32,000 bases of DNA from Acaryochloris marina MBIC11017 (GCF_000018105.1 NC_009930.1:145163-177162), one strand, 5' to 3'; shown: positions 915-22,111, counted from the stretch's first letter. Notes: generated from the sequence alone by a model not told the origin. Translations and numbers: made by a program.

Positions 915-1283
915 TTATCGCTGCCATTGTCGCCATTTTGGATTAAAAGCATCAAACAAAGCTTCAGCTTCCTCAACTGTCATACCGTTCTCACGAGCAT
1001 AAACATCGACAGGAGGCCAACCTCGCATTGAATCAGTAACAACAACCCAACCTTGATCTGAGTTACGTAGCGTTGCTGAACTACCAGCATGTCCATCAGT
1101 CCAACTTACTAATGCAAAATTCCCTACAATTGCAACTTTATTAATTACTGCTGAAGGAGATAACGCAGAACTGGCAGTAGCAATTACTTCCTCAACTTGA
1201 TCATTTGATTGGACTTGCGCGATCGCAACTGGAGAACTCAGAACAAACATTAAGACAACTGCACTCAATATTTTCCCAATCAT
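915..1283 (-). CDS. Small secreted protein of unknown function, inside the conjugation gene block.
   Basis: The ORF track gives 915..1298. The signal-peptide-like N-terminus is MIGKILSAVVLMFVLSSPVAIAQ. The internal ATG at 1283-1281 overlaps the upstream TGA (1282-1280) as ATGA, so it is the preferred start; 1298 remains possible. Confidence 0.5.
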   Translation of the reverse strand: MIGKILSAVVLMFVLSSPVAIAQVQSNDQVEEVIATASSALSPSAVINKVAIVGNFALVSWTDGHAGSSATLRNSDQGWVVVTDSMRGWPPVDVYARENGMTVEEAEALFDAFNPKWRQWQR

Positions 1284-3886
1284 CTTGTTACTCTCCATAT
1301 TTGTGTTTGAGGATTGTCAGACAAGTATCTTGAATTATCATACGTTCCATCAAAATTCCTATCTGAAACCCAACTAAACGATGCACGACCAGAAGAATTA
1401 GACAGAATCTGACTACAGCCTACATTCATACATACACCAATGTGTTGATAACCTTTTGAAAGGGCAATATCTCCGGGTTGTGCTTCAGAAGGATTGACTT
1501 GCTTACCTCGGCCAGCAGCAAACTTATCAGCCCAAGTCGGAACCCAATCAGTCTGCATAGGCTGAATTCCTGCTCTAGCTAGTACATGATCTACAGACCA
1601 AGCACAAGCTTGATTCCCACCTTCAGGTCCACCTGATGTATCAAATCCCCGCATTTGCTTAGCCGATTCAAAGATAGCGTTATTGATTTCTCCCGCTTCC
1701 GGTGCTGGACCTTGAGCAAAAGTGGCTGAGCCATTGGTGGGCTGGCAGAAAGGAACCCCAAAAGATGCAGTGGCACCCGTTGGAGTAACCGGAGCATTGC
1801 CATTAGGACCATAGACTTCAAGGGCAACTGGATCATTCCACTTCACATCTTCCGCTCCTCCAGGGAGACTGGTGAACTGATTACGCCCCAACAAATAATC
1901 AGCAGCCTCAAAATTACCTGAACGAATATAGCCGATGATGTCATGGCCGACTTCCTGACCATAGATATCAATCCAAGCTAATGCAGCACGATCACGCTCT
2001 TCTTTGCTTTCAGACCAAGCATCAATACCTGTCCTAGTAAAAAGCGTATTTCGACTCTTCTCGATGAATTGATATTCACCATATGCACCCGTATCAGGAT
2101 GTGGCCCAATATCAGTTCCTCCAGTAGATTCACCATACGCAATGCGGGCTAGATATTGATTGATATGATGTTGTTCACTGTTTGGAGGTGAGCTACCATC
2201 AGCACCACCAGTCGTCTGATTTGAATCGGTGGTATTGTTCGTTTGTGCTGAGGCAACCAATGTAGGTTCCCGGCAAAACTGCTGTTGACTGGGCTGGAGA
2301 TTACGGATTGCATCAGGAATGCCCCCAGATCGAGCTAGAAGCAACATGATTCCACCTTCTTTAATGCGCCAGGGGGTTGGAATCCTGATGAAATGAGGGG
2401 TGTAATGACTCCCAGTAATTGGATCTGAATAGCCAAACTGCCATGCCGTGGACAACCGGGCAGATCCCACCTCATCCCCTGACCCTTCCCTCATGTCTTC
2501 CAGGTACAGCTTGACATTGCCTGCCACCCAAGGCTTAATCCCGGTGACCTCCTTGCCATTGGCTATAATTCTCAACCAGCCTTGCCCACCGGGCACCATC
2601 TGATCTGGCCCTTGAATCCAGGCTTGCCCTGATAACTTCGTGGGTTCGCCACCCCCATCAACATTGTCCAACTCAAAGTGACGACAGTTCTTGGTATCTT
2701 TCCCATCGATTTTGCAGGGTGCAGGTTTAGGAATTTGGTCTTTGGTCCCACCACTGATTACATAGTCGATGTTATCGACCACTGCGGCAGCATCGGTCGT
2801 ATCAATTCGCCCCAGCAAATCCAATCGAGTGAAGCTCAACGCTAACGCTAAATCAATCTGGTCAAGCGGTACATCTTTGAGGCCAGGGACTTGATTGAGG
2901 GTCTTATCTTCAGAACCGGGGATATCCTTAATCGCTGTCTCTCCCACACCAGGAGCATCAGCCAATCCCAGCTTATCGAGGGGCAAGGTTCCAAGGGGTA
3001 AATCCTTTATTGCTTTGGCGATTTTGGGATTCTTCATCAACTCTTTGATCAGAACTTTGGACCCTTCTTTGATCGCTAAATCCTTAGCCTGCTTTTTGAC
3101 GGTATCCCAATCCCCGTTGATAATCCCCTGAGTTAATGGGATGAGCTGCTTTAAGGGCAGTTTCCGCAGACGATTATTGACCTTGCTTAAAGTCTTCGCT
3201 AGCTTGCTCCGTTCCTCTTCTGTGAATACGTCACCCCAGTCTCCCTCTATTAAATCTTCAGCAGGGATATCTGAAATCTCTGGGTTAGACGCTTTCTGTT
3301 CGATAAAAACAATGTCTGTTTGATCAATGGGTTCATGTAGAAGCGGTTCGTCCTCGTAGTATCCAAATGCAGATTGCACCACTGCGGGGGCTTCTTCTAA
3401 AGATTGTTCAGCCGCACCAGGATTAATTTGCAGATACTCTCCCACTGTCATTGTTGATGCGATTGGAACCTCAGACAGGGTTACGGTTGCGGGGTCTTTG
3501 CCACTGGCTTTCAAAACCTCATTGATATTCAATTCCGTAAACTGCTTAAACTGCGGATGATTTTTCAGGTGTCCGATCTTGAGAACTTGATCTGAGCTTG
3601 CGTTTGCGGGCCATGCCCCATTGAGATAGGAGGGTGCTTGGGAACCTGCGGGCAATCGAATACTCCCCGCTGTTTCAGAGGCTGGACTATTGGCAAAGGT
3701 CGGTGCGACGACACCAGATGGGTCATAGTACAGGCCTGGTATCGTGCCTTCTTCCTGGGTTTGAGTATTTTGATTAGCAGCCTTTATGGACTGCTGGTTG
3801 ATAATCTGTGCTACTGCTGGGAACGATTGTAGGGTGAGTACAGCAGCAGGTAGTAGGCTGAATATTCGTTGGGGATATCGAGGCAT
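1280..3886 (-). CDS. Large secreted bifunctional cell-wall hydrolase: lambda-lysozyme-like (GH104-type) lytic transglycosylase plus a C-terminal CHAP/NlpC-P60-like cysteine peptidase.
   Basis: The 870-aa track ORF starts at TTG 3892; the ATG at 3886 gives the signal peptide MPRYPQRIFSLLPAAVLTLQSFPAVAQ. The motif IAYGESTGG...GAYGEYQF...DRAALAWI...FTSLPGG (about nt 1860-2180) parallels phage lambda R (EG...GRYQ...QD.A...W.SLPG). The C-terminus has NQACAWSVDHVL...YQHIGVCMN, a Cys/His pair (about nt 1380-1610). Confidence 0.75.
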   Translation of the reverse strand: MPRYPQRIFSLLPAAVLTLQSFPAVAQIINQQSIKAANQNTQTQEEGTIPGLYYDPSGVVAPTFANSPASETAGSIRLPAGSQAPSYLNGAWPANASSDQVLKIGHLKNHPQFKQFTELNINEVLKASGKDPATVTLSEVPIASTMTVGEYLQINPGAAEQSLEEAPAVVQSAFGYYEDEPLLHEPIDQTDIVFIEQKASNPEISDIPAEDLIEGDWGDVFTEEERSKLAKTLSKVNNRLRKLPLKQLIPLTQGIINGDWDTVKKQAKDLAIKEGSKVLIKELMKNPKIAKAIKDLPLGTLPLDKLGLADAPGVGETAIKDIPGSEDKTLNQVPGLKDVPLDQIDLALALSFTRLDLLGRIDTTDAAAVVDNIDYVISGGTKDQIPKPAPCKIDGKDTKNCRHFELDNVDGGGEPTKLSGQAWIQGPDQMVPGGQGWLRIIANGKEVTGIKPWVAGNVKLYLEDMREGSGDEVGSARLSTAWQFGYSDPITGSHYTPHFIRIPTPWRIKEGGIMLLLARSGGIPDAIRNLQPSQQQFCREPTLVASAQTNNTTDSNQTTGGADGSSPPNSEQHHINQYLARIAYGESTGGTDIGPHPDTGAYGEYQFIEKSRNTLFTRTGIDAWSESKEERDRAALAWIDIYGQEVGHDIIGYIRSGNFEAADYLLGRNQFTSLPGGAEDVKWNDPVALEVYGPNGNAPVTPTGATASFGVPFCQPTNGSATFAQGPAPEAGEINNAIFESAKQMRGFDTSGGPEGGNQACAWSVDHVLARAGIQPMQTDWVPTWADKFAAGRGKQVNPSEAQPGDIALSKGYQHIGVCMNVGCSQILSNSSGRASFSWVSDRNFDGTYDNSRYLSDNPQTQIWRVTR

Positions 3887-3914
3887 GATCAACAGAGTTG
3901 AGTGACAGTCTGTT

Positions 3915-4108: not shown

Positions 4109-6640
4109 TTAAGTATCCAACTCCTTTATTTTTTTACAGCAATCGTCAAAATTGCTCTGAACTTTAAATGTGTATGGATGTTCATCACCCAAGAGGTTCT
4201 GGAGTATATTCAGGCTTTGTTCGTAGAGGGATTTCGCTTTGCTGTACCGTCCTTGGATATCGTAGAGTTCTGCCAGGTTATTGAGGCTACGAGCAACATT
4301 GGGGTGTTCGTTGCCCAAGAGTTTCTGGAGCATCTCCAAGGATTGCACATAGAGGGGTTTCGCTTTGCTGTACCGTCCTTGGATGTAGTAAAGTTTTGCC
4401 AGGTTATTGAGGCTTTGAGCGACATCGGGATGTTCGTTGCCCAAGAGCTTCTGTCTCATCTCCAAGGCTTGGTCATAGAGGGGTTCGGCTTCGCTGTACC
4501 GTTCTAGGGTGTAGTAGAGGAAGGCCAGGTTATTGAGACTTTGAGCGACATCGGGGTGTTCGTTGCCCAAGAGCTTCTGGCACATTTCCAAGGTTTGGAC
4601 ATAGAGGGGTTCGGCTTCGCTGTACCGTCCTTGGCTTTCGTAGAGTCCTGCCAGGCTATTGAGGCACACCGCGACATCGGGATGTTCGTTGCCCAAGAGC
4701 TTCTGTCTCATCTCCAAGGCTTGGTCATAGAGGGGTTCGGCTTCGCTGTACCGTCCTTGGCTTTCGTAGACTGTTGCCAGGTTAATGAGGCTTGTTGCGA
4801 CATCGGGGTGTTCGCCGCCCAAGAGCTTCTGTCTCATCTCCAAGGCTCTGTCATAGAGGGGTTCGGCTTCGCTGTACCGTCCTTGTTTGTAGTAGAGTGT
4901 TGCCAGGTTATTGAGGCACATCGCGACATCGGGATGTTCGTTGCCCAAGAGCTTCTGGCACATTTCCAAGGCTTGGTCATAGAGGGGTTCGGCTTCGCTG
5001 TACCGTCCTTGCCTGTCGAAGAGTGATGCCAGGTTATTGAGGCTTGTTGCGACATCGGGGTGTTCGCCGCCCAAGAGCTTCTGGCACATTTCCAAGGCTT
5101 GGACATAGAGGGGTTCGGCTTCGCTGTACCGTCCTTGCCTGTCGAAGAGTAATGCCAGGTTATTAAGGCTTTGAGCGACATCGGGGTGTTCGCTGCCTAA
5201 GAGCTTCTGTCTCATCTCCAAGGCTTGGTCATAGAGGGGTTTGGCTTCGCTGTACCGTCCTTGGTTGTAGTGGAGTAATGCCAGGTTATTGAGGCTTGTT
5301 GCGACATCGGGGTGTTCAGTACCGAATCTTTTTTTTGCCTGTACCAGGCATTTTTGTCTCCAGGGTAAAGCTAAACCATAGTTTCCTTGCCCTTCATAAT
5401 ATCGACCGATACCTTGAAAAGGTAGGATCAAGTCATCATCACTGAGATGGTCAATCCATTTTCTGATAAGTTCCTCTAGATGAGGAATGCAACCTTTTAT
5501 CTCAGTAATTACATCAATCGTTGGACGTTCATCAATACCCTGTTCAATACCCACTATTCCTCTGCAATAAGCCGTTTTGAGGGATTCCCCCTTGTCAGTG
5601 CGCTCATGCAACTTAATCCGAAAGAACTCCTTTACAATTTGATGGAGTTGATAGGTACTCTCTTCCACTCGTTTGAGTAAATTTCTATCTCTTAAACCTT
5701 CATCTCTAAGGTCTTCCAGATCATCATTATCCTGATCAAATAGACACTCTTCAACCAGATGCCAAGGAATCGGTGCAATCGCAAACATGCCTAATAAACA
5801 GGCAAGTTCTTGTTCTACCTCACTTAGTTCTACCCAGCTCAACTCCAATGCAGAAGCTACCCCTAACTGAGCCGTCATCCCTGATTCTTTGGCAATAAGA
5901 GCTTTCGCTGTTAGTTTCTTGGATTCAAGACGCTCAACTAGTTTTTCAAAGGACCAGTCTAATTTTCTCGCTAGAAATCGTCCCAACAATTCTAATCCTA
6001 ACGGTAGGTTACCCACCCAACCACATAGGGTTTTAGCAGCTTCTAGCTGTGAATAAATCCGGTCTGGTCCCACTAGCGTTTCTAGAAGTGCCAAGGCACT
6101 TTCATCATCGAGTTCTTCAATGGACAAAGACTGCACAGAGCTACCCAAGTTCAAACGAGTTGTCAGCAACACTTTGAACTTCGGATCTGAGGGAGGCAGA
6201 TAAGGCTCAACTGCATCAAACTCAGTTACATCATCGAGAACAACTAGCACATCCCCCTCTCGCCAATGTCCCCAGGAATAGTCAACCTGGCCTTTTTCAT
6301 CTAATCCATCTGGGAGAGTAATACCCAGCTTGGTCTGAGCAAACGACACAATTTGGGTTGCGATCTCTTGGTCCCTGGCTCTTAGCCAGCAAAATCCACC
6401 GGGGTATTGCTCCTGTTCTAATTGAGCTATGGCGTATTGCAATGCCAGCTCTGTTTTACCAATGCCCCCCATCCCAGCGATGGCTGTAATCGCAATCCGC
6501 TGGTTGTTTTGTAATTGCTCGCGAAGGTCTTGAAGCTTTTGGTTACGGCCAACAAACTCCTTGACACCACTTCGGGGAAGGTTAGAGGGAATGCCAGTAG
6601 GAGGATTTAACTTTGCCCAGTCCCGCTCAGGCGACTCTAG
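4109..6640 (-). CDS. NB-ARC (STAND P-loop NTPase) plus nine 42-aa TPR repeats. This is the C-terminal part of an NLR-like gene that continues in frame from 6641..7069 across one TGA.
   Basis: The track ORF 4109..6472 begins with a Met inside the Walker A (IAG-M-GGIGKT, nt 6452-6475). The 56 codons 6473-6640 are open and in frame, with no ATG, GTG or TTG. VLVVLDDV is Walker-B-like. Nine near-identical repeats follow (EHPDVAxSLNNLAxLYxxQGRYSEAEPLYxQALEMxQKLLGx). Confidence 0.85.
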   Translation of the reverse strand, partial: LESPERDWAKLNPPTGIPSNLPRSGVKEFVGRNQKLQDLREQLQNNQRIAITAIAGMGGIGKTELALQYAIAQLEQEQYPGGFCWLRARDQEIATQIVSFAQTKLGITLPDGLDEKGQVDYSWGHWREGDVLVVLDDVTEFDAVEPYLPPSDPKFKVLLTTRLNLGSSVQSLSIEELDDESALALLETLVGPDRIYSQLEAAKTLCGWVGNLPLGLELLGRFLARKLDWSFEKLVERLESKKLTAKALIAKESGMTAQLGVASALELSWVELSEVEQELACLLGMFAIAPIPWHLVEECLFDQDNDDLEDLRDEGLRDRNLLKRVEESTYQLHQIVKEFFRIKLHERTDKGESLKTAYCRGIVGIEQGIDERPTIDVITEIKGCIPHLEELIRKWIDHLSDDDLILPFQGIGRYYEGQGNYGLALPWRQKCLVQAKKRFGTEHPDVATSLNNLALLHYNQGRYSEAKPLYDQALEMRQKLLGSEHPDVAQSLNNLALLFDRQGRYSEAEPLYVQALEMCQKLLGGEHPDVATSLNNLASLFDRQGRYSEAEPLYDQALEMCQKLLGNEHPDVAMCLNNLATLYYKQGRYSEAEPLYDRALEMRQKLLGGEHPDVATSLINLATVYESQGRYSEAEPLYDQALEMRQKLLGNEHPDVAVCLNSLAGLYESQGRYSEAEPLYVQTLEMCQKLLGNEHPDVAQSLNNLAFLYYTLERYSEAEPLYDQALEMRQKLLGNEHPDVAQSLNNLAKLYYIQGRYSKAKPLYVQSLEMLQKLLGNEHPNVARSLNNLAELYDIQGRYSKAKSLYEQSLNILQNLLGDEHPYTFKVQSNFDDCCKKIKELDT
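4182..5317 (-). repeat. Nine tandem 126-bp coding repeats (TPR_10/12-like, kinesin-light-chain type).
   Basis: Strings such as ggggttcggcttcgctgtaccgtccttg recur every 126 bp. Several spurious alternate-frame ORFs in the track (4178..4507, 4541..5026, 4834..5181) come from this periodicity. Confidence 0.9.
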
Positions 6641-6643
6641 TCA
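6641..6643 (-). other. Single in-frame TGA separating the N-terminal domain from the NB-ARC/TPR body. The context is UGA CUA G.
   Basis: The minus strand reads AAG ACC GTT TGA CTA GAG TCG. Both flanking ORFs are in the same frame (168 nt from 6473 to 6640). Confidence 0.9.
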
Positions 6644-7069
6644 AACGGTCTTATTGATGGTGATGTTTTCACCTTGAAAAACCTCACCACCTGAAATGCT
6701 GTTTTGGAAGTTGGTTCCACCGTAGTTATTTTGAACTTGGGTGTTTGTGTCCTTACTGATATGAAAATTAATTTCTTGGGCTATCTGCCGTAATTCCCCA
6801 GCAAAGGCTTCATCTAGCATTTCTACGCCTAGCAGAGTAGCGACGGTTTCAATTGCCTTTTGATTACCTTGTTCTGCCTGGGTTAAAGCCTGTCCTGCCG
6901 CGTCATGCTTACCACGCAACCTATCCCAAATCTTCTGACGGAGCTTTCCCATCAAGGTAAGGGCATCAGCAGTAAACTGTTGTGCTGCTTCACCAGCGCT
7001 GGATTTTAGAAACTCTTGAAAGGCAAGATTAGCAATTACAGCGGCTGTTAGGGTAACTGGTTCAGTCAT
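6641..7069 (-). CDS. N-terminal all-alpha domain with a G/N/Q-rich tail (142 aa from ATG 7069). It is probably the N-terminal effector/adaptor domain of the NLR-like gene.
   Basis: The track ORF is 6641..7138. The internal start MTEPVTLTAAVIANLAFQEFLKS... at 7069 is preferred. The sequence is helical-looking and ends in ...QVQNNYGGTNFQNSISGGEVFQGENITINKTV followed by TGA. Confidence 0.6.
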   Translation of the reverse strand: MTEPVTLTAAVIANLAFQEFLKSSAGEAAQQFTADALTLMGKLRQKIWDRLRGKHDAAGQALTQAEQGNQKAIETVATLLGVEMLDEAFAGELRQIAQEINFHISKDTNTQVQNNYGGTNFQNSISGGEVFQGENITINKTV

Positions 7070-8787: not shown

Positions 8788-9186
8788 TTAGATAAGAATC
8801 AGCAGACTAGTTAAATCATGCCAGCACCCTCGACCCAAATCATATAGGGTGTCAACAAATATCCTCCTAGCTTGCCTCTCAAGAATATCTTCGACTCCAG
8901 CCCGATAACGGTTCCACGAATCTTCAAGACTCGTCGCTGGCCGATCAATGAACTCCATTGGAGAGTATCTCATCGATAAATCAATAGGTTCTGCTTGTCT
9001 CTCTTTGACATAATTGGATACAAATTCTGACCGTTGCTCACAAGTCGGATACTTCGCCCTCAATTCATCAATTGTTGGAAGACCTACATGCTGAGAACTG
9101 ATATAAAAAAATCCGATGATTACAATGGCGAACGGCGTCAGAAAAAACAAAGCAAAAAAGGCTGGGATACCTAAAAATTTCTTCAT
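8788..9186 (-). CDS. Small N-terminally membrane-anchored protein, unknown function.
   Basis: A 132-aa ORF with the hydrophobic N-terminus MKKFLGIPAFFALFFLTPFAIVIIGFFYI. The context is AT-rich. Confidence 0.45.
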   Translation of the reverse strand: MKKFLGIPAFFALFFLTPFAIVIIGFFYISSQHVGLPTIDELRAKYPTCEQRSEFVSNYVKERQAEPIDLSMRYSPMEFIDRPATSLEDSWNRYRAGVEDILERQARRIFVDTLYDLGRGCWHDLTSLLILI

Positions 9187-9344
9187 CAGTTTTCTCTAAG
9201 AACCCCTGTACCCCAGGCCAGGGTGGATCAATTGATTGATATTGTTATCATGCTGTAATAGTTCATTTGTAATATAGTAGATTTTTACCTTGATTTTTCA
9301 ATTTTCAGAGATAAAAGCCCCCTGCGTCACAACCTATGCTTAAT

Positions 9345-9767
9345 TCACTGAATATTTACAACCTGATACTTGGCCCGACTCGTAGGCACCACAAATAGCA
9401 CATGCTTAGCCCCAGAGTTCGTTACGATCACGAGCATTGATGACCCATCAGAGTTTGAGAGTTTACCCTTGATATTTTTGGGTCTGACCCTCGTCAATTG
9501 CAGCATGGAAGGAGCCTGCCCTTGGCATTGCTGTACCCCAGTACAAAGCTGACCATCCAAGGGATAAAGCTCAATTTGATTCGGTGGCTGAAGGCTCAAA
9601 CCCTGAATCTTGTCACCATTGTTGAGGTGGACAATCACCCCGGATGGATCAACGGCAATGGGCCGCATATTGGTTGTTCCTTTGAGGTTCAACTCTCTAA
9701 CTTGCTGTGCTGAGGCGACCGTTGACCAGCTCAGTAGAAATAGTAGTGGAACTAATAATCCCTTCAC
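9345..9767 (-). CDS. Secreted conjugation-cluster protein, last gene of the operon. A VirB9-N-like beta domain is a guess.
   Basis: A 140-aa ORF with a GTG start overlapping the upstream stop (GTGA). The signal peptide is MKGLLVPLLFLLSWSTVASAQ. Confidence 0.55.
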   Translation of the reverse strand: MKGLLVPLLFLLSWSTVASAQQVRELNLKGTTNMRPIAVDPSGVIVHLNNGDKIQGLSLQPPNQIELYPLDGQLCTGVQQCQGQAPSMLQLTRVRPKNIKGKLSNSDGSSMLVIVTNSGAKHVLFVVPTSRAKYQVVNIQ

Positions 9768-11200
9768 AGACGCACCTCTCTTACAAAATAGAGCTGAACT
9801 CTTTTACCGCCAAACCGAAATACGCCAATCTTGGTTTGCGTTAGGCCATTAACAGATTGTCTTAGTCGTTCCCCAATCCGTCCAGTGGCTCCCTCAACAA
9901 AAGCAGCGGTGCTATTGAGATCGCTGTTGTTCGTGGAAAGGAACGTTTGGTTCCCATTGGTAAAGGAGGTTTGGCTAGTAGGATTATTCCGGTTACTGGC
10001 CCAGGTCTGAACCCCACCTATCCCGATATCCAGAGCCGTCTTCAACCAATTACTATTCCCTCCTTTCGTCTCCAGCTTGGCAATCATCGTCGGATCGCCA
10101 TCTTGATGGATTTCAACGGCTCCTGACTGGACAAACTTAGATCCAATCTTAGTGAGATTGACGGAGATTAAGCCTTGCTCTGTGGCCTGGGTGACAAAGC
10201 CAAGGGCTATCGTGCCTCGACTCGCAACGACATCCCCTGCACCATCCTTCAAATCGTCCTGAAGCTTCAACCGTACAACTTTCCCTTTAGCTAGCTTTGG
10301 ATTTTCCGGTATCCATGAGACACGATTAACCACCTGAGCAGAAACAGCGGTATCCACGGGAATCACCGCTTGGCTAGCCGTTGCCACAATCTGATTCATG
10401 TAGGGGTTTTTGAGGTTACCAGAGAGGTTTCCAAGCTGCCGGGGTTGAGGCTGAGGAATGGACTTAGACGCACTCGCGATCTGGGTAGGAGGATTAAACA
10501 ACTTAACGGGTTTCTGAGTTGTCTTAAATCCTTCAGACTTGGTTAGCTTCAACAATTTCCGTTGACCAGATACAGGAGACTTTCGGGTTGCAGCCAAGGG
10601 AGCCGTAAAGTACCCCGCATTCGGATCGTCCACTTCAGCCTGTGCGGCCACTGCCACCGGGCGTTGGACTGAAAACTGTCGTTGAGGTTGCTGAGGGGGT
10701 GGAGCAACAGGTCTCGGTCGATAAATCACCCGTGGAGGGGTCACGGTTCTTTGTGGCGTCACGGAGACTCTAGACCGTGAGGGTTGACCCAGTGTAGAGG
10801 GTGCAGTGACGCCTTTGTTCTTGTTAGCCAACCTTCGACCTTGCTGATCCTGGCGGTTAAAGGTTTCCCGCTTTAAGACCTCTTGCAAGAGCTGCTTATC
10901 TTCGGGTGACAGGGCGGACTGGGCAATAGCTTGGGAGGGATTGAACTGCTGCTGCTGTTGAGCCGTGATAGCGCTGCTGGAGTTCATGATCAGCAGTAGC
11001 CCCCCTCCCAGAATCAGAACGATGCTCACACAGGCACCCACGAGGATAATTTTAGTTTTGGGATTTTCGGCAAAGTTGTATTGGGTACGGACGGTATAGT
11101 CCTGATCCCCATCATCAATCTCTACCGTCGTGTCAATCAAAGACTCATCTTCCAAGCCGTCATTAACGGTATCTTTCCATTTATCTAAAACAGCGGCCAT
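9764..11200 (-). CDS. VirB10/TrbI-like bitopic protein (call based on architecture).
   Basis: 478 aa: an acidic N-terminus, a single TM helix (ILVGACVSIVLILGGGLLLI), a Q/P-rich linker (PRPVAPPPQQPQRQ) and a C-terminal beta-rich domain. It follows a VirB8-like gene after a 2-bp gap. Confidence 0.55.
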   Translation of the reverse strand: MAAVLDKWKDTVNDGLEDESLIDTTVEIDDGDQDYTVRTQYNFAENPKTKIILVGACVSIVLILGGGLLLIMNSSSAITAQQQQQFNPSQAIAQSALSPEDKQLLQEVLKRETFNRQDQQGRRLANKNKGVTAPSTLGQPSRSRVSVTPQRTVTPPRVIYRPRPVAPPPQQPQRQFSVQRPVAVAAQAEVDDPNAGYFTAPLAATRKSPVSGQRKLLKLTKSEGFKTTQKPVKLFNPPTQIASASKSIPQPQPRQLGNLSGNLKNPYMNQIVATASQAVIPVDTAVSAQVVNRVSWIPENPKLAKGKVVRLKLQDDLKDGAGDVVASRGTIALGFVTQATEQGLISVNLTKIGSKFVQSGAVEIHQDGDPTMIAKLETKGGNSNWLKTALDIGIGGVQTWASNRNNPTSQTSFTNGNQTFLSTNNSDLNSTAAFVEGATGRIGERLRQSVNGLTQTKIGVFRFGGKRVQLYFVREVRL

Positions 11201-11202
11201 TA

Positions 11203-11925
11203 CTAGCTCCTCTCGTTAAACGCTTCAATTCGGATAATCATCAATCCCCGTCGCCTCACCTCGGCATAGATTTGCTCAATGGGCGTAAATGCTGCCCGCT
11301 TTTTGGGGGCCTCAACTTCAACGAGGTGGATGACGTTGTTGAAGGGGGTAGAGGCATAGGCATCGTCATTTTTGTCCAGGTCAATCAACTCAGCGAACAC
11401 CAAGACTTCCCAGCCCTTCTCGGTTTTCTGAGGGGGTGCAATCCGAGTGATATTGAGTAATCGAGCTTCACCCTGATTAAACTTTTTAGGCTTATAGTCA
11501 CTAATCCCTTGTCGAAACGCTTCCCGGTAGGGAGAGGCCAGGGCATTACTGTAGACATCAATCAGGGTGGGAAGGGGGCCATATCGCGTATTGCGACCTG
11601 GATCAATGCCCGTAGGATGAACGTCTGGACTCACCCGCTGACTCCAGGCAAACAAGGCAGGTAGGGCCTCTTTGATAAACTCTTTGGCGTTCGCGTCTGG
11701 ATTCAGCCGTTCGGCGGAAATCAGTTTGGCATCTTGACCCACCTGGACCACGGGTGGACCCGCTTCAATCGCCGTCAGGCGACCATTGATGGAGGCCAGT
11801 TGCCAAAACAGGGGGGATAGGACCACCAAGCCCCCCGTCGTCGCAATCAGAGCTTTGAGTAAAAAGGGCGTCAGTCCTGACGGGGTATCCCTCGCCACCT
11901 GTTCAAAGATAGAGGTTTTCAGCAT
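11203..11925 (-). CDS. VirB8-like bitopic protein (call based on architecture).
   Basis: 240 aa: a short N-terminus, one TM helix (LIATTGGLVVLSPLFWQLA), then a globular domain of about 180 aa. Its position in the operon fits. Confidence 0.45.
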   Translation of the reverse strand: MLKTSIFEQVARDTPSGLTPFLLKALIATTGGLVVLSPLFWQLASINGRLTAIEAGPPVVQVGQDAKLISAERLNPDANAKEFIKEALPALFAWSQRVSPDVHPTGIDPGRNTRYGPLPTLIDVYSNALASPYREAFRQGISDYKPKKFNQGEARLLNITRIAPPQKTEKGWEVLVFAELIDLDKNDDAYASTPFNNVIHLVEVEAPKKRAAFTPIEQIYAEVRRRGLMIIRIEAFNERS

Positions 11926-11927
11926 AT

Positions 11928-12977
11928 TTATCGTCTCCTAAGTAATCCAAGGGCAGACAAGCCAAACCCCAGTCCACCACCAGGGGGGCGTCGTGCCAGA
12001 TAAACGACAGCGGGAATCATAACGATCACCAGGAAGATCGGCAGCAGCAGCGGATCTTCCCCAGGCAGCAAAAGCATGACCCTGGCAATTAACACGAGAA
12101 AAATCTTGAAGACCAACTCGATTAAGAACAAATCCATAAACAAGCCCATGCCAAAGACGATGGGTGGGTTGTCACTCGGGACAAAGGTCAGTCCCACATA
12201 TAGGGGCATAATCAGGGCCACAATCGGCTTGGCAACCCGCAGCAGAATCATAAATGCTGCGGTGATTAAGAACAGGATTGAGGCAATTAGCTTCCTAGCG
12301 GTGTCGGCGATAAACAGCTTGATCTCCTTCTCCACGGTCTGCCCAATCACCTTGTCGCTATAGGCGACATAATCATCCGTAATCTCACCAAACAAGGCGA
12401 TTGAATCTTTCCTGAGCTTCTGCGCCCATTCCACATTCCCAAAGGGTGCCGTGGCAGAGGTCACCCGCTGCTGTCCCTCGATGATGCACTGCTCTCGCTC
12501 CTCCCCAGAGGGCAGCTCCGAACAACGCTGGAAATCCTCTTGCATTCGGGCTTGAACTGCCCGCTGTACCTGGAGTTCATTCAAGGAACTGTTCGGTCCC
12601 GTTTCCAGCTTGTCTAAAACCATCTGAGTCAGGGCATTGCCGAGGCGATCCGCATTGACCACCACATTCCCTAACAGCTTGCCGCGATTCGTGGGGGTGC
12701 CCAGCAGGATAAGCAAGAGGATGGCAATGAGAAAGAGACGGATGCTATCTGGGGCTTGGTTCATTTCTGGATCAAGCCAGTGACGCACGAGGCGAAAGAA
12801 CCAAAACGCCGCAAACAAGAAGGCGATAATCGCCCCCAAGTTGGCAATCTCGATAAATAGCGGGGTATTGAGGACATCCCACAACACTTGCACTGCCGCT
12901 TCCACTCGGTTCGTGAGTTCGTTGGCGTTATCGATAATGTCTTGGGGATTATCGGTGATGGCAGCTAGGGTGATCAT
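11928..12977 (-). CDS. VirB6/TrbL-like polytopic membrane protein.
   Basis: 349 aa with at least five hydrophobic helices and a central soluble loop. It overlaps the upstream gene by 4 bp. Confidence 0.55.
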   Translation of the reverse strand: MITLAAITDNPQDIIDNANELTNRVEAAVQVLWDVLNTPLFIEIANLGAIIAFLFAAFWFFRLVRHWLDPEMNQAPDSIRLFLIAILLLILLGTPTNRGKLLGNVVVNADRLGNALTQMVLDKLETGPNSSLNELQVQRAVQARMQEDFQRCSELPSGEEREQCIIEGQQRVTSATAPFGNVEWAQKLRKDSIALFGEITDDYVAYSDKVIGQTVEKEIKLFIADTARKLIASILFLITAAFMILLRVAKPIVALIMPLYVGLTFVPSDNPPIVFGMGLFMDLFLIELVFKIFLVLIARVMLLLPGEDPLLLPIFLVIVMIPAVVYLARRPPGGGLGFGLSALGLLRRR

Positions 12978-13981
12978 CGGTTATTCGCCACAAAGGGAGG
13001 GGCTTGCTGAGTTTGAGCCGTCTGTAGGTTGGGATTGACGGGATCAGTTTGCTGGCCGGACTGGGCGACGCTAAACACGAGGTTCTGGGCATTGGCGAGG
13101 GAGAGGTTCTGGGCCGTGCGTTCAATTTCATCCTTCCAGTCCTTTTTCTGGTTAATCTCCAGATTGGCGAGGGTTGTATCGTGAACTCGATTCACGGAAA
13201 AACGGGTCTGCTGTTGCTCAGAGAACTGGAACTGTCCCAGCAACTGGCCGTTGGCCTCAATCTGAGCGCGGATCTTCTCCACATCCTGGGTGGAGTTCGC
13301 GTCATGGGCCTGGTCCACCATTTCACCGGAGGTGCGGATCACATTGGCCACAAAGTCTCTCGCTTCCTTGGCAAAGGTCTGACCATCCTCCCCAAACAGA
13401 ACCTCCAAATTCTTGCGTTGGGCACGGGTGACGGCCAAGTCACCCACGAGGGTCTGATAGGCATACCCGCTCAGCCCCAGTGGACCCGTGGGATCTGGGA
13501 CGGAGGCGAGGACCACGGAGGCGATCTGCTCTCTGACTTTTGCGGGATCGATCTGACCATCGACCCCATAGACATCCCCAATCGGCGCGCCATCAACGGT
13601 AACCCCGTTTTCCTGCTGCTGCCGAGGCACTTTACCAAACAGCCATTCTCCGTACGCTAGGTTGTTATCAATATGCTTAAGGAAGCTGAAATGCTTGCCA
13701 ATGCCAAACAGGCCCCCGACCAGATCAATCACGGGCTTGGCCTGCTGATAGATTTCAACCCCCTTCTTGAAGTCCTTGGAGATCTGGGTCTCTTCCCCGG
13801 TTTTCTTATCGACCTCAAAGAGTCCTTTGTTGTTGATGGGCTGATCTTTTTTGAAGACGCTGTAGTCCACATCGGTTGTACGCCAATAGTCATTCTCTCC
13901 TTCCGCAACGTTTTGGGCGGCAACTGGTGTGGCGATCACCAGAAGGGAGATGGGGAGGAGTTTTAAGTATCTATTACACAT
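12974..13981 (-). CDS. Secreted conjugation-cluster protein (a VirB5-like minor pilus or adhesin role is possible).
   Basis: 335 aa with the signal peptide MCNRYLKLLPISLLVIATPVAAQ. It overlaps the VirB4-like gene by 8 bp. Confidence 0.5.
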   Translation of the reverse strand: MCNRYLKLLPISLLVIATPVAAQNVAEGENDYWRTTDVDYSVFKKDQPINNKGLFEVDKKTGEETQISKDFKKGVEIYQQAKPVIDLVGGLFGIGKHFSFLKHIDNNLAYGEWLFGKVPRQQQENGVTVDGAPIGDVYGVDGQIDPAKVREQIASVVLASVPDPTGPLGLSGYAYQTLVGDLAVTRAQRKNLEVLFGEDGQTFAKEARDFVANVIRTSGEMVDQAHDANSTQDVEKIRAQIEANGQLLGQFQFSEQQQTRFSVNRVHDTTLANLEINQKKDWKDEIERTAQNLSLANAQNLVFSVAQSGQQTDPVNPNLQTAQTQQAPPFVANNR

Positions 13982-16900
13982 GATCGATCACCTTTTGATC
14001 TTCAGATTGCTGCTGGAGGTATAGGGCCAAAGCACTGGCCTGCTCGTATTTATCCGTGGCGTTGCTCTCGGCAAAGATGCGGTCGCGCAGCTCCACCTCA
14101 TCGAGGTTGTTCATCGTCAGCCCGAAGCTGGCAAAGTCGGGATAGTGATAGCCAAAGTGATATCGTCCCCCCGTGCGGATCAGCCATTGAGAGGCAAATT
14201 CTAAGGGGGGATTGTCCCGATCTGGGTTAAAGTCGCTGTCGGTGCAGTATCGAGCAATCTCAGGGTTAAAGCCGATCTCCGTTAAATCTTTTACGGCAGT
14301 GTCCTTAATCGCCCCGACGAGATAGGTGCCGACGTTGTCTAGGATGGAGCTGGCTTCATCCTTATGCTGGAGCAGGATGTTAAGGGATTGACCCACCCAA
14401 CAGGCCCAAACCCCGGATTTGGCTTTCCCCGTAAACCACTCCGCGACAATGCCCCGATAGCTTTCAAAGCGCCAGAGGTTGGTGGATTCCTCGGCCACGA
14501 CCCAGGTCCGTTTGCGGGTAAAGGTCTGGTTGAGCATACTGGCTTGAGCGGCCAGCAAGGCGGGAACCATATCTGCATCATCCTGGACAGACCCCAAGCC
14601 ATAGACCACTAGGGGCTTATCGACTTGGAAGGAGGAGGGTTCAGAGATGGCTTTCCCGGACTGGCGCTGCATCAGGGCCACTAAGGACATCTTGATCCGT
14701 AAAATGGCTTGCTCTGCCTCATCAGACTGTAGCTCTGCGGGCAGACGGGCGAGGGCGATATAGTCCACGAATTTGCGTAGGCAAGGCATCTGACGCCATG
14801 CCTGAGTTCCATATCCTTCCGCATAGGCGTTGGCATAGGCGGTCTGGACGGGTGGCTCAGACAGGTAGGCCGTGACTAAGTTGGTCAATATATCCGTATA
14901 GAACTTGATCAGGGTGGCCGTATCATCACGGGTGGTGGTTAGGTTCTTGAGGGCACCCACTAGAAATTTCTTAAACAACCCTTCGGCGATATCCCGCTGC
15001 TCTGGTCGCATAATTCTGGGATCTGGTTTCTGGAAGATATTGAAGAAATCCGACCCCGCATCAAAGTGAGAAGCGTCCACGAACTGGGTATAGGCATCAA
15101 AGCTGCCTGTGTTATCCTCCCGGCCCGCGTCAATAATCACGACTTGGGTATCGGGTTGCGAGAGGACGTAGGTGGAGATGGCCTGGACGATAAAGGACTT
15201 CCCGGTACGGGTCGTGCCCATCAGGATCATATGGTTATGGGGCTTACGGCCAAAGGGGTCCACCTTTAAGGGGGAACCTGCCTTGGAAATAAATTCAATC
15301 CCCCGCTGGTCAGGCCGTCCGTCCATCACCAAGGGCATCATCCCAATGGCCGCAGCGGTGGTCTCTCGCATTTGCCGATTAAACTTCTCGGTGAGTTTAG
15401 CCAAGGATCCTTTCAAGAGAACGCTGGTGGTCACGGGCTGGGCTTCCAGAAATAGGGAATCAAAGTAGCCCGTTTCCCGTTTGGCTTTCTCCCCAGCAAA
15501 GATGGGGATGGAAGAGAGGCGCTGAATGGCTCGGTCTAAGGACCGCTTATCTTTCCGGTACACAATCGCCATCCATCCCACTTTGAGGGTATGCCCCCCT
15601 TCCCTGAGCTTCATTTCTGCTTCTAGGCTTTTGCGAGTGTTATAGATGGCCCCTCCATCCAGGCGCTTACGGTTCTCCGTCATCACCAAGGACTGGTTGG
15701 ATTGACCCGTATTCCGCTGGGAGGTCTTGAGGACCGCTTTTTGTGGCTCCGCTTCAAAGGTGGCGATGATCTCTAGGTTAGAGAGGGCATCGGGTTTGAC
15801 GGAATGCCGATCTCCGAGGATGGGGGAGCTGGCATCCAGTAGCTGGTCTAGTCGTCCCGTGTGGGGATGATACTCTCGGTTGGGGCGTTGGTTCAGGACC
15901 AGGCCCCCGGCATACATTTGCCGACCGGGAAGCCAAACCACGGATTTACCGTAGTCCGGGGTGTTCTGTAAGAGGACTGAGGAAATGGCCCGGCGACCAT
16001 TGCGATGGGCCGTGATGCTCTCTCGGGTGACGACAATCACCTGGGGAATGGGGGGAACCTCACCGGAATTAAAGCGACGGTAGACCGCAGCCCAGACTTG
16101 TTCAGGAGTCATGGGCCGAGCGGACAGCCCACATTTATTGAAGAAATTTCGGTAGTGGATAAAGGATTCATCGTAGGCAGAGATCAGCAGCTCATGTAGC
16201 CGCTGGTCGAGCTGCTGGCCCTTGCGTCGCTCATCCCACCAATCCACGATGCTTTGCACGGTGGAGGTGAAGGGATCTTGATGCCGCCCCATTGCCCCTA
16301 AGTCATGGTGGATATAGAAATGCAGAAATTTGGGTTGATATTTCCCCCGCTTCTGTAAGGCTCTGACCCGTCGTCGAATCCAGTACAGAAGAAATGAGAT
16401 CGGTTCACTGGGGCACTGTTCCCCCTGGCGATTAATTTCCCGGATGCGGTCCTCGCAGTTGGCAAAGGCCCCCATATGCATGGTCAATGGATCGCCGATG
16501 CGCAGGTCTCTAAATCCTTCTTGGATTTTCTCTGCGGTGACGCGGGCCTGTTCTCGGGTGCTGGTGGAGGGAATGCCATCTGAATCCTTCATCCAGACGG
16601 CCTGCAATTTCCCCTCACGCTGGAGCAGGAGGGCACCGCATCTAGGATCTGGATCAAGCTGGAAGTCAATCACCGCTGCGATATCGATATCATCCTCTGC
16701 GGGGCTAACTTTCCGCTGGGCCGTTTTGGGGCCAATGGTCTTGGTTTTACCGATTCGCTTCTTAAGGCCCGACCCAATATCCTTCTCTGTTTTGAGGTTG
16801 GCATTGACTCTCAGTTTGTCTGGGTGGAGTGCCCCCATCACCTTCCAAGGCTGAGACCCCAAGAGCATCCAGTAGCTGACGGTCAATCCCAGCCATAGAC

Positions 16901-17075
16901 CCAGAACGGGAATCCAGGGCAAGGATAGGTGCAGGGTGGCGATGATCGATTGGAGGAGGACGATCAGGACCAACACCACGACCCCAAAGACAAACACCTC
17001 ACGGGGAATCATGAGGATATGGGGCCGCTCGTCCAGGGCGGGCGTATATTGAATCGACTTTACTTCTTCTGTCAT
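13974..17075 (-). CDS. virB4: VirB4/TrbE-family conjugation ATPase with an N-terminal VirB3-like membrane domain.
   Basis: 1033 aa. The N-terminus has 2-3 TM helices. Walker A is GTTRTGKS (nt 15195-15218) and WVVAEESTNLW is Walker-B-like. Size and position after the pilin-like gene fit. An AAGGGGGG Shine-Dalgarno sequence precedes the ATG at 17075. Confidence 0.85.
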   Translation of the reverse strand: MTEEVKSIQYTPALDERPHILMIPREVFVFGVVVLVLIVLLQSIIATLHLSLPWIPVLGLWLGLTVSYWMLLGSQPWKVMGALHPDKLRVNANLKTEKDIGSGLKKRIGKTKTIGPKTAQRKVSPAEDDIDIAAVIDFQLDPDPRCGALLLQREGKLQAVWMKDSDGIPSTSTREQARVTAEKIQEGFRDLRIGDPLTMHMGAFANCEDRIREINRQGEQCPSEPISFLLYWIRRRVRALQKRGKYQPKFLHFYIHHDLGAMGRHQDPFTSTVQSIVDWWDERRKGQQLDQRLHELLISAYDESFIHYRNFFNKCGLSARPMTPEQVWAAVYRRFNSGEVPPIPQVIVVTRESITAHRNGRRAISSVLLQNTPDYGKSVVWLPGRQMYAGGLVLNQRPNREYHPHTGRLDQLLDASSPILGDRHSVKPDALSNLEIIATFEAEPQKAVLKTSQRNTGQSNQSLVMTENRKRLDGGAIYNTRKSLEAEMKLREGGHTLKVGWMAIVYRKDKRSLDRAIQRLSSIPIFAGEKAKRETGYFDSLFLEAQPVTTSVLLKGSLAKLTEKFNRQMRETTAAAIGMMPLVMDGRPDQRGIEFISKAGSPLKVDPFGRKPHNHMILMGTTRTGKSFIVQAISTYVLSQPDTQVVIIDAGREDNTGSFDAYTQFVDASHFDAGSDFFNIFQKPDPRIMRPEQRDIAEGLFKKFLVGALKNLTTTRDDTATLIKFYTDILTNLVTAYLSEPPVQTAYANAYAEGYGTQAWRQMPCLRKFVDYIALARLPAELQSDEAEQAILRIKMSLVALMQRQSGKAISEPSSFQVDKPLVVYGLGSVQDDADMVPALLAAQASMLNQTFTRKRTWVVAEESTNLWRFESYRGIVAEWFTGKAKSGVWACWVGQSLNILLQHKDEASSILDNVGTYLVGAIKDTAVKDLTEIGFNPEIARYCTDSDFNPDRDNPPLEFASQWLIRTGGRYHFGYHYPDFASFGLTMNNLDEVELRDRIFAESNATDKYEQASALALYLQQQSEDQKVIDHV

Positions 17076-17085
17076 TAGACCCCCC

Positions 17086-17544
17086 TTAATTGGTTCCTGG
17101 ATTCACAACGCCACCGATGGGTGTGCCACCAGTGGTTGTGTTACTGGCAGTTCCAGTCGTTCCGTTCCCCAGGAGATACCCCCCGAGATAATTAATGCCA
17201 ATAATCAATAACAGTGCGGCCAGGATGGCTACGAAGGGGGCCATATAATCTTCTTCCCGCCGAAGTTTGTGAACGAGGGGGACGGCCAATGCCACAAGGA
17301 TGGCCATCACCAGGATTTGCACGACAATGAAAAAGAAATCAATCATGGCGACTGCTTTGGTGTCCTGGGATAACACTGCATTCCCCCGCAGTACATCTTT
17401 CGGGCCGCACAGCCAGCCCACGCACTGCGCGAAGGTGGGTTCACAGAAGGCGAAGGCTAGACCAATCGCGGCAAGAATGACCCACTTATATTTATTGAGA
17501 AATCGATAGAGTTGACGGCGCTGGATGGGATTGAGTCGAGACAT
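17086..17544 (-). CDS. VirB2/TrbC-like pilin candidate.
   Basis: 152 aa: a long basic leader plus signal sequence (…WVILAAIGLAFAFCEPTFAQ), two hydrophobic helices and a G/T/N-rich C-terminal tail. Confidence 0.5.
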   Translation of the reverse strand: MSRLNPIQRRQLYRFLNKYKWVILAAIGLAFAFCEPTFAQCVGWLCGPKDVLRGNAVLSQDTKAVAMIDFFFIVVQILVMAILVALAVPLVHKLRREEDYMAPFVAILAALLLIIGINYLGGYLLGNGTTGTASNTTTGGTPIGGVVNPGTN

Positions 17545-17895: not shown

Positions 17896-18798
17896 CTACC
17901 CAGCCCAGGGGTGGAACCGATTAATAAGAACGGCTTGACGGCTGGCCTGAGCTAGATACGGCCAGGGATCTACAGGCTGACCGTTCATAATCATCTCGAT
18001 ATGAGCATGGGGGCCTGTGACTAATCCCGTTGCCCCGCTATCCCCGATATGCCAACCTTGCTCCACCCATTGACCGGGCTGAACATGAATCTTGGACAGG
18101 TGTGCATAGCGAGTCTTCAGCCCCGTACCGGGATGCTCAATCACCACGGATTTGCCATAGCCCCCTTCCCAGTCGGCATGTATAACCCGTCCGCTCAGCA
18201 TGGTTAGGGTAGGGGTGCCGTGGGGTGCGCCTAGGTCAATGCCAGCGTGGAAACTGGTATTACCCTGGACCGGATGTTCTCTCCAACCAAAAGCACTGGT
18301 AACGGCAAATATTGAGGTCAGGGGATACCCTATCGTTTCTACAATGGTTGTGGGCACGGGCTGACGATAGGCAACACCGGAAGAGGGCTGAATCTGTTGT
18401 CTTGGCTGAGGGGGAACGGATGTCTGAGGTTGCGGTGCTGGCGTTGGTAAAGGGGCCTGATAGGGAGGTTCTAGAGGCGTTGAAGGTATTTCTCCATAGG
18501 GTTGATTTGTTTCCTCTAATGCGGGTTTAGGTTGCTCCAATGGAGGAGCGAGGACCGCTGAATCATCTGCTAATGGCTCTGGAACGGGAATATCGATAGG
18601 GACTGGGGGAACCGTGGCAGTCTCCAATGGGGCATCTGTCTGAACGGCTTCGGGTTCAGGGTTTGGCTTGGTAACGACTGGCTCTGTTTCGACGGGCTTG
18701 GGTTGCTCTCCAATGGCAGGGGCAATGTTCCCCTCTCCAATAGATGGAGCTACATTGAGCTGCCCAAGGAGTGACAGGAGGATTAGAGGCTTGATCAC
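17896..18798 (-). CDS. M23 (LytM-type) metallopeptidase with a Pro-rich N-terminal region.
   Basis: Contains HAGIDLGAPHGTP...GGYGKSVVIEHPGTGLKTRYAHLSK...GDSGATGLVTGPHAHIEM, the HxxxD and HxH motifs of M23. The GTG start overlaps the upstream TGA. Confidence 0.85.
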   Translation of the reverse strand: MIKPLILLSLLGQLNVAPSIGEGNIAPAIGEQPKPVETEPVVTKPNPEPEAVQTDAPLETATVPPVPIDIPVPEPLADDSAVLAPPLEQPKPALEETNQPYGEIPSTPLEPPYQAPLPTPAPQPQTSVPPQPRQQIQPSSGVAYRQPVPTTIVETIGYPLTSIFAVTSAFGWREHPVQGNTSFHAGIDLGAPHGTPTLTMLSGRVIHADWEGGYGKSVVIEHPGTGLKTRYAHLSKIHVQPGQWVEQGWHIGDSGATGLVTGPHAHIEMIMNGQPVDPWPYLAQASRQAVLINRFHPWAG

Positions 18799-22004: not shown

Positions 22005-22068
22005 TTTCTGTGTGGCTGATGAGCTACACAGGAAGGGTAGGTAGGGTCGCCCTTGAAGTGCAAATTGG
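21949..22068. repeat. Direct repeat copy B.
   Basis: gctgacgtggatttgatcgccaacagtccaagtg... ; see copy A. Confidence 0.8.
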
Positions 22069-22086
22069 AATAGTGGGTATACTGTT

Positions 22087-22109: not shown

Positions 22110-22111
22110 TC

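Follow-up and report, generated by a model that had tools for sequence, protein, structure and literature searches.

Why should a gene for a receptor of the NOD-like receptor (NLR) type be cut by a single in-frame stop codon, with no start codon behind that stop from which the second part could be translated? The question is raised by a stretch of 32,000 nucleotides (nt) from a 177,162-bp plasmid of Acaryochloris marina MBIC11017 (NC_009930.1, positions 145163 to 177162), hereafter called the window, in whose minus-strand reading a small effector gene (gene A) and the gene for a sensor with NB-ARC and tetratricopeptide repeat (TPR) domains are parted by one UGA. The comparative evidence favours a programmed leaky stop, one of the options raised by the original prediction: stop-codon read-through that would provide abundant free effector of 142 amino acids (aa) together with a small amount of effector-sensor fusion, a reading that we consider probable with moderate confidence. 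As a whole, the locus is best explained as a two-product cyanobacterial NLR-type immune or cell-death system.

Re-reading of the sequence bore out the layout first described for this locus (Table 1). The two open reading frames (ORFs) share one minus-strand frame of 986 codons (142, the stop and 843) with a single interruption; the 56 codons that follow are open and free of ATG, GTG and TTG, the first canonical start is the Met within the P-loop, and the stop stands in the context GUU UGA CUA GAG. Gene A is opened by ATG 7069-7067 and closed by TGA 6643-6641; its mechanical ORF begins upstream at TTG 7138, whereas homologues begin at the MTEP.. Met. It lies immediately upstream of, and collinear with, the sensor ORF, which runs to the TAA at 4111-4109. 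Pfam analysis of the post-stop ORF likewise agrees with the proposed order of NB-ARC followed by nine TPR repeats (TPR_12 match, E = 2e-179) and lets the NB-ARC domain begin 24 codons upstream of the P-loop Met, so that the protein has the layout of an NLR-like STAND NTPase, an NB-ARC domain with its P-loop and then a repeat sensor.

Table 1. Features of the effector-sensor locus, in positions of the window
Feature	Position (strand)	Remarks
Putative read-through frame, whole	4109..7069 (-)	Effector, motif, UGA, linker, NB-ARC, TPR, TAA
Gene A, effector gene	6641..7069 (-)	142 codons, span incl. TGA; ABW32968.1 / WP_012167890.1, annotated 'hypothetical protein'
Predicted Bell-like helical domain of gene A	6752..7069 (-)	Residues 1-106; hydrophobic N-terminal helix (M-T-E-P-V-T.., 'MEPIS'-like) and four helices
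C-terminal N/Q/G-rich motif of gene A (..QNNYGGTNFQNSISGGEVFQGENITINKTV)	6644..6742 (-)	Predicted beta strands; candidate signalling/adaptor motif
Conserved in-frame stop UGA	6641..6643 (-)	Stop at the matching position in 29/29 related junctions
Spacer CUAGAGUC, 8 nt	6633..6640 (-)	+4 C, +5 U, +8 A
Hairpin, 5 bp	6615..6632 (-)	GCCUG (6632-6628), loop AGCGGGAC, UGGGC (6619-6615)
Sense codons from stop to P-loop Met, 56	6473..6640 (-)	No ATG/GTG/TTG; linker and beginning of NB-ARC (..IPSNLPRSGVKEFVGRNQKLQDL..)
ATT (Ile), codon 17 after the stop	6590..6592 (-)	Non-canonical start implied by RefSeq WP_071820034.1
P-loop GMGGIGKT	6452..6475 (-)	Its Met (ATG 6472-6470) is the first canonical start of the sensor (IAG-M-GGIGKT)
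NB-ARC (STAND NTPase) domain	5903..6544 (-)	Pfam PF00931, E = 4.7e-16, residues 33-246 of the post-stop ORF
TPR array	4196..5305 (-)	9-10 near-identical units of 42 residues; Pfam TPR_12, TPR_10, TPR_NPHP3; presumed sensor part

Annotation pipelines give sensors of this kind truncated or non-canonical starts (P-loop Met, ATT, ATA). In the window, the GenBank model ABW32967.1 ('TPR repeat domain protein', 787 aa) begins at the P-loop Met, while the RefSeq model WP_071820034.1 has 827 aa against 843 post-stop codons, which forces its start to ATT 6592-6590. Start annotation also differs among loci: the sister loci L001, L003 and L004 were given ATA, ATT or a GTG inside FVGR, and the JGI metagenome gene calls for L126, L130 and L132 begin the sensor at the P-loop Met. 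A further peculiarity of the sequence is that the near-identical 126-nt TPR units create long spurious plus-strand ORFs (4178-4507 and 4541-5026) and make the array prone to mis-assembly and to changes in repeat number.

The junction between the two parts was compared across related loci gathered by plasmid blastn, by gene A profile scans (one genome per species plus metagenomes) and by four exact look-ups. We call type 1 those with the in-frame stop and hairpin design and a sensor without a conserved start, and type 2 the two-gene relatives; 29 distinct type-1 junctions were obtained, a count that overstates the number of independent events because the loci are mutually related. The plasmid search alone returned five related Acaryochloris loci, whose annotation lists a 'hypothetical protein' and then a 'tetratricopeptide repeat protein', and three of the five have the identical junction design: A. 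marina S15 unnamed15 (..INKTT-TGA-CTA GAG TCG..), Acaryochloris sp. 'Moss Beach' pMB04 with the same sequence, and A. marina S15 unnamed10 (..VNKT-TGA-GTG GAG TCG..), for all of which NCBI starts the sensor at ATA or at a mid-domain GTG. Beyond Acaryochloris, type-1 junctions come from Leptolyngbya, Stenomitos, Phormidesmidales, Pseudanabaena, metagenome-assembled genomes of Synechococcales, and uncultured cyanobacteria and metagenomes, with gene A identity to the window falling from 89% to ~37%; in 22 of the 29 the sensor is intact, with an in-frame P-loop 51-56 codons after the stop. Comparison of the orthologs, as proposed with the original prediction, thus finds a conserved stop and not a sense codon at this position. 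It is TGA in 26/29 type-1 junctions as against 7/45 type-2 loci (Fisher p = 1.7e-10), the exceptions being UAA in L011 and UAG in L026 and L038. The following base (+4) is C in 24/29 type-1 junctions as against 9/45 type-2 loci, and +5 U and +8 A are invariant in the junction alignments. No protein covering both parts was present among the best 120 hits to a junction-spanning query.

These observations were further strengthened by the coding constraint downstream of the stop. Over post-stop codons 11-55, the ratio of non-synonymous to synonymous change (dN/dS, Nei-Gojobori method, nine type-1 locus pairs) ranged from 0.07 to 0.28; between the window and its closest relative, L006, it was 0.17, and 0.11 over codons 11-33, a segment in which neither of the two loci has a canonical start. 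Frame 0 holds no stop within 53 codons after the junction in 18/18 loci, whereas frames 1 and 2 hold 0-6 stops and no locus has both of them open. The P-loop stands 51, 53, 54, 55 or 56 codons from the stop, all indels being whole codons, and the downstream ORFs are intact, reaching up to 882 codons. The position of the first canonical in-frame start, in turn, wanders from codon 0 to codon 57 after the stop across type 1, and in the window, L001, L006, L013, L126, L130 and L132 none precedes the P-loop; type-1 orthologues therefore do not present themselves as two genes of which the second has a proper start. On this comparative evidence, the sensor region upstream of the P-loop is translated. 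Frameshifting was considered as a route into this region and rejected, both parts being in one frame and both other frames closing within a few codons.

An in-frame stop in one sequence is by default read as a sequencing error, a recent nonsense mutation that leaves a pseudogene, or a decaying intermediate of gene fission, all of which the original prediction had listed as alternatives. Decay does occur in this family, since visible decay or rearrangement marks a few related loci (L004/L017, L014, L032, L106); L004 (A. marina MBIC10699 pREC3) and L017 are type-2 pairs in which the N-terminal domain of the sensor is broken by frameshifts and stops, and they are truly decayed, in contrast to the intact type-1 loci. 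The stop in question, however, is the same in 29 junctions from independent assemblies, including three Acaryochloris strains, and its conservation across loci whose flanking genes diverge to protein identities of 37-89% excludes sequencing error and a recent nonsense mutation. The pseudogene reading is likewise excluded by purifying selection downstream and by intact downstream ORFs; in the window the single stop is accompanied by no further disabling mutation in the 843-codon ORF. Fission in progress is unlikely for an arrangement that is old, widespread and equipped with a dedicated conserved RNA element of its own. Taken together, we regard the chance that error or decay explains the junction as negligible.

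The RNA element in question is a small hairpin that begins 8 nt after the stop, with the consensus G-N-C-Y-G, a loop of 8-11 nt, and C-G-G-N'-C. Across the 23 sequences of the helix alignment, 99% of cells are paired, and compensatory double changes occur in 3/5 helix pairs: one pair varies among U-A, C-G, A-U and G-C, L026 has GGAGG/CCUCC, and L091 and L098 have UCGG/CCGA. As a control, sliding the partner by 1-3 columns reduced pairing to 11-52%. RNAalifold recovered the same helix unaided, and single-sequence folding recovers it in most loci. In addition, synonymous change is low over the 30 nt after the stop (pS 0-0.21 in codons 1-10, compared with 0.4-0.74 just downstream), and this applies also to pairs of loci in which change in the gene A tail has reached saturation. 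Covariation and synonymous-site conservation, not stability, are what speaks for the hairpin. A pseudoknot between the G-rich loop and a downstream C/U-rich tract is weakly suggested: the summed duplex energy fell below that of mononucleotide shuffles, but the pairing is absent in three loci and the C runs are accounted for by Pro codons. Bypassing of the T4 gene 60 type was rejected as well, given that the last sense codon of gene A, GTT in the window and GAT, GCT or CCT in other loci, differs from the one that follows the hairpin.

Bacterial selenocysteine insertion also makes use of a UGA with a hairpin close behind it, and the stop might accordingly be recoded by a dedicated tRNA, whether for selenocysteine, for pyrrolysine, or a suppressor encoded by plasmid or host. 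Against this stand the UAA of L011 and the UAG of L026 and L038 at the same site, a variable hairpin loop sequence, and the lack of any match in Rfam, the selenocysteine insertion sequence (SECIS) families included, at E <= 1; nor does the window contain a tRNA gene, suppressor or other. The stop variants and the Rfam result led us to reject selenocysteine itself, and we hold recoding by a dedicated tRNA in general to be very improbable. Inter-cistron hairpins that set differential expression are known from bacterial operons, and the nucleotide-level constraint just after the stop would suit a role of hairpin and context in RNA processing or stability, giving the two genes differing mRNA levels while the sensor is translated by some other, unrecognised route. 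A 5-bp stem without a U tract is, however, too weak as a terminator or stabiliser, no promoter-like or terminator-like site was found between the two ORFs, and the strict frame, the TGA-C bias, the missing start and the missing motif (see below) are left unexplained, which makes RNA processing an improbable account.

The main rival to read-through is non-canonical (re)initiation, by which a separate sensor protein would be made either by termination-reinitiation on the codon next to the stop (GUG, CUG, AUA, CUA) or by non-canonical initiation downstream, for instance at ATT 6592-6590; the role of the hairpin would be to retain or stall the ribosome or its subunit, or to set the product ratio. 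Bacteria are known to couple neighbouring genes by termination-reinitiation where stop and start codons adjoin (Huber et al. 2019, PMC6728339), and the type-1 junctions resemble this in having adjacent co-directed genes without a spacer, with UGA-GUG in L005, L009 and L014. Several other loci carry CUG or AUA at this codon, the ordinary two-gene relatives are tightly coupled pairs, and in the models of the NCBI pipeline the sensor begins at ATT or ATA. Such coupling nevertheless needs a start at or next to the stop, whereas the window and most relatives have CUA, the commonest post-stop codon, which is two positions off AUG; the variation among L, V and I at this place resembles conservation of an aliphatic residue. 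Further downstream, ATT 6592-6590 is not a conserved start, because six relatives (L003, L008, L009, L011, L091, L098) have a Thr codon, ACC or ACG, at the ATT/ATA position, and the 16 codons between the stop and this position stay open and have undergone whole-codon indels in three independent cases. Neither candidate is preceded by a Shine-Dalgarno-like sequence, CCUCC being what precedes the ATT, and a sensor so made would be without the motif found in the two-gene relatives. A Shine-Dalgarno role of CUGGAG/CUAGAG was rejected in its own right, as no start lies 5-9 nt downstream and the stretch is inside the stem. (Re)initiation is plausible where the post-stop codon is GUG (3 loci), CUG or AUA and unlikely for CUA; as the general explanation we judge it unlikely.

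The motif provides a further line of evidence. In the about 45 type-2 loci, gene A ends in any of the stop codons and the sensor, in any frame, has its own start; in about 35-40 of them the N-terminus of the sensor repeats the gene A motif (local scores 40-121; for example MTQNNYDNAKGWQTKVEGGTAYIG vs LIQINEGNAKGFQTLVTGGIANIG), and this repeat is the defining motif pair of the systems that couple Bell domains and bacterial amyloid signalling sequences (BASS) to NLRs. Type-1 sensors, by contrast, have no motif copy (local scores 13-28; the window scores 28 in a spurious alignment), and consequently the sensor would acquire the motif by read-through only. That an effector-sensor fusion is a viable architecture is demonstrated by the stop-less proteins P0313 (957 aa) and P0306 (967 aa), which read Bell-motif-NB-ARC-TPR, the single ORF of P0313 being confirmed on contig DNA; another fusion, P0269, reads Bell-motif-CHAT-TRADD_N-TIR. 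The segment LESSDxDRTK, found behind the type-1 stop, is absent from the stop-less fusions. Some type-2 loci (L073, L075, L077, L094, L095, L097, L104) carry TGA-CTN or TAA-CTAGAG directly after gene A and an in-frame ATG 2-5 codons later, as in TGA CTC GCT ATG, and could be evolutionary intermediates between the two architectures.

Read-through accounts jointly for the kept stop, the kept frame, the translated N-terminus without a start, the leaky and structured context, and the sensor without a motif. Several points weigh against it all the same. We know of no earlier description of read-through stimulated by RNA structure in a bacterial cellular gene. The short hairpin folds with an energy no better than that of shuffled sequences (z about 0), and that of the window, with three G-C and two G-U pairs, is not the minimum-energy fold, although L006 has a stronger, 6-bp hairpin and the stem of L001, too, is stronger than that of the window. 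Three of the 29 junctions end in UAA or UAG, which are much less leaky stops; the post-stop GUG, CUG and AUA of some loci, as one-base neighbours of AUG, could support re-initiation; and the mutual relatedness of the loci, as said, inflates the counts. The claim that UGA-C is the weakest termination signal in bacteria agrees with the literature (PMC5289835; PMC7026636), and it is this +4 C that the bacterial evidence covers, while the likeness of UGA-CUAG to eukaryotic read-through signals, to which attention had also been drawn, is mere analogy.

The working model that we propose has four steps. Most ribosomes would stop at UGA 6643-6641 and release the free 142-aa effector, consisting of the Bell-like domain and the N/Q/G-rich beta motif. 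A minority would decode the weak UGA-C by a near-cognate tRNA, probably that for Trp, aided by the conserved 3' context and by the small hairpin, which 8 nt downstream would sit at the mRNA entrance of the ribosome. Reading would then continue into the NB-ARC/TPR sensor and yield an effector-motif-sensor fusion of about 985 residues. Once the TPR sensor is triggered, the NB-ARC domain would oligomerise, and the clustered motifs of the fusion could recruit or template those of the free effector and so activate it. We infer the occurrence and efficiency of read-through and the inserted amino acid from the comparison of loci, and the signalling step by analogy with the Bell/BASS-NLR, Bab/Agp and HET-S/NWD2 systems considered below.

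To examine how widely this design is used, a covariance model of stop, spacer and hairpin was searched over 0.65 Mb of sequence. The window scored 43.9 bits, and matches occurred only at junctions of the type-1 style, including the held-out L029, L030, L034 and L032. One of the matches was a new case, at 1050-1082 of L003 ('Moss Beach' pMB04), where the hairpin follows the stop of an alpha/beta-hydrolase gene that is in frame with an NB-ARC gene. This gene (L003:135-1300) encodes a serine hydrolase of the GHSMGG type and ends in ..ISGGEVYQGENITINKTT-TGA-CTAGAGTCG and the hairpin, i.e. in the same motif and junction, and NCBI starts the NB-ARC/TPR gene behind it 42 codons later. It is a second effector type with the same cassette, found through the covariance model and not through gene A homology; the alpha/beta-hydrolase gene in the window itself (24036-24944) is unrelated to it. 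The downstream module varies as well: a gene A homologue with stop and hairpin is followed, in frame in all three cases, by a CHAT protease domain in L007 (1929-2336), by a divergent STAND NTPase with TPR in L038 (3954-5513, stop TAG), and by an ORF with a transmembrane segment and a PsbP-like part in L023 (3933-4529). Since the junction occurs with varied effectors and downstream modules, the cassette is portable and not tied to one sensor family. We propose, with slightly more belief than doubt, a portable cyanobacterial recoding cassette that consists of a weak stop, in most cases UGA-C, then 8 nt of spacer and a small hairpin with covariation. Lying between the gene for an effector with its motif and an in-frame immune sensor, this cassette would make abundant free effector and rare fusion from one cistron, with the identical motif in both.

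Gene A itself belongs to a family of small proteins. The best 120 hits to it are all stand-alone proteins of 139-164 aa, and an exhaustive profile search collected 436 relatives. These have a helical body and the N-terminus M-x-(D/E)-P-(V/I)-T..LAFQEF in common, whereas their short C-terminal motif comes in a few classes. Searches of Pfam, NCBIfam and PADLOC with gene A gave no match, and Foldseek comparison of its AlphaFold2 model with the PDB gave nothing below E = 1. The model (mean predicted local confidence, pLDDT, 68) has helices at residues 9-21 (hydrophobic), 34-51, 56-66, 70-83 and 87-106 and three beta strands over the motif (110-133). This agrees with what has been published on Bell/Babybell domains, which comprise about 100 residues, begin with a region termed 'MEPIS' and have four helices that cup helix 1, itself hydrophobic; Bell domains sit upstream of NLR genes and carry BASS. 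On predicted topology and N-terminal sequence we call gene A 'Bell-like by prediction', and its product is predicted to be a membrane-attacking effector.

The Bell/BASS-NLR pairs of filamentous bacteria (Dyrka et al. 2020, bioRxiv 10.1101/2020.01.06.895854), which are common in cyanobacteria, resemble the present locus in their small protein of about 100 helical residues, whose N-terminal helix is hydrophobic and whose C-terminus bears a short motif, and in the position of the effector gene immediately upstream of, and collinear with, an NB-ARC/TPR gene. They differ in that the type-1 sensor has neither motif copy nor start and shares one frame with the effector across a conserved stop and hairpin; that study makes no mention of stop codons, read-through or in-frame arrangements, and its pair-based screen would not score type-1 loci. 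In the amyloid-signalling antiphage system Bab/Agp of E. coli and the fungal HET-S/NWD2 (Ibarlosa et al. 2024, bioRxiv 10.1101/2024.11.07.622273), a motif-bearing sensor likewise converts a motif-bearing helical executioner, although the two are separately translated proteins, whereas the motif of the window would reach the sensor only via read-through. The executioner attacks the membrane with a buried N-terminal helix (the 'MEPIS' region); gene A begins M-T-E-P-V-T and is predicted to have a helix 1 and four further helices, and its motif is predicted to form beta strands. An N-terminus of the MEPIS type is also seen in Avast2-type NLRs. The all-in-one proteins P0313 and P0306 have the domain order of the predicted read-through product (effector, motif, NB-ARC, TPR) but no stop, no segment with LESSDxDRTK and hairpin, and no free effector from the same gene.

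Programmed read-through is textbook knowledge for viruses and some eukaryotic genes. For bacteria, to our knowledge, the examples amount essentially to phage Q-beta and a handful of isolated cases, and we know of no stimulatory structure in the Q-beta coat/A1 gene. The viral signals of the UGA-CUA and UGA-CGG kind (alphaviruses, tobra-, peclu- and furoviruses; Firth et al. 2011, PMC3159437) and that of murine leukaemia virus (MuLV) gag-pol combine a UGA with +4 C, a spacer of 7-9 nt (8 nt in MuLV) and a phylogenetically supported stem, with raised synonymous-site conservation after the stop and an abundant short and a rare extended product, much as proposed here. They operate on eukaryotic ribosomes and eukaryotic release factor 1 (eRF1), with stems of 10-12 or more bp or a pseudoknot, in contrast to the bacterial system with release factor 2 (RF2) and a 5-bp stem. 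In coliphage Q-beta, a bacterial ribosome reads through the UGA of the coat gene at a few per cent to give the functional C-terminal extension of A1 (PMC7026636), in a phage gene, whereas the present case is a family of cellular and plasmid immune loci with a structured element.

Full-text literature searches found no description that joins read-through with bacterial NLR/STAND systems or with cyanobacteria, and what is new here is that recoding by read-through, known in itself, is combined with the likewise known pairing of an effector and an NLR through a common motif. If the reading is correct, it would amount to structure-assisted programmed read-through in bacterial cellular genes and to a new class of bacterial recoding, its signal common to dozens of cellular and plasmid loci, and it would offer a natural test bed for the effects of 3' context and structure on RF2. 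It would further constitute a third wiring of NLR-type sensors to executioners, besides two-gene pairs and all-in-one fusions, in which the sensor-to-executioner ratio is set by a single cistron and both proteins necessarily carry the identical motif, so that two motif copies need not co-evolve. Screens for pairs of amyloid-signalling motifs would miss type-1 loci.

Turning to the surroundings, the type-1 loci L126, L130, L131 and L132 from metagenomes have defence-island-like neighbourhoods with toxin-antitoxin genes (PemK, YoeB, PIN), a NERD protein and a NACHT-WD40 gene, and in L130/L131 a YhcG/DUF1016 nuclease gene lies directly upstream. In the window, the sensor gene is followed directly by an ORF of 870 aa (1280-3892, minus strand) whose N-terminus resembles a signal peptide and for which Pfam gives no match. 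Nine co-directed, tightly packed minus-strand ORFs (132-1033 aa, several overlapping by 4 nt) occupy 8788-17544 and have no Pfam match at all; the run may be an undescribed transfer or secretion module, given that typing places the related plasmids among the conjugative or mobilisable ones (MOBF, MPF_T). Two unusually long proteins of the sigma-70 family are encoded at 19886-21316 (minus strand, 476 aa) and 27302-28585 (plus strand, 427 aa), with regions 2-4 confined to the first half, and near them are genes for an M23 peptidase (17896-18798), a Phd/YefM antitoxin (22010-22405) and a YhcG/DUF1016 nuclease of the PDDEXK type (24969-26015).

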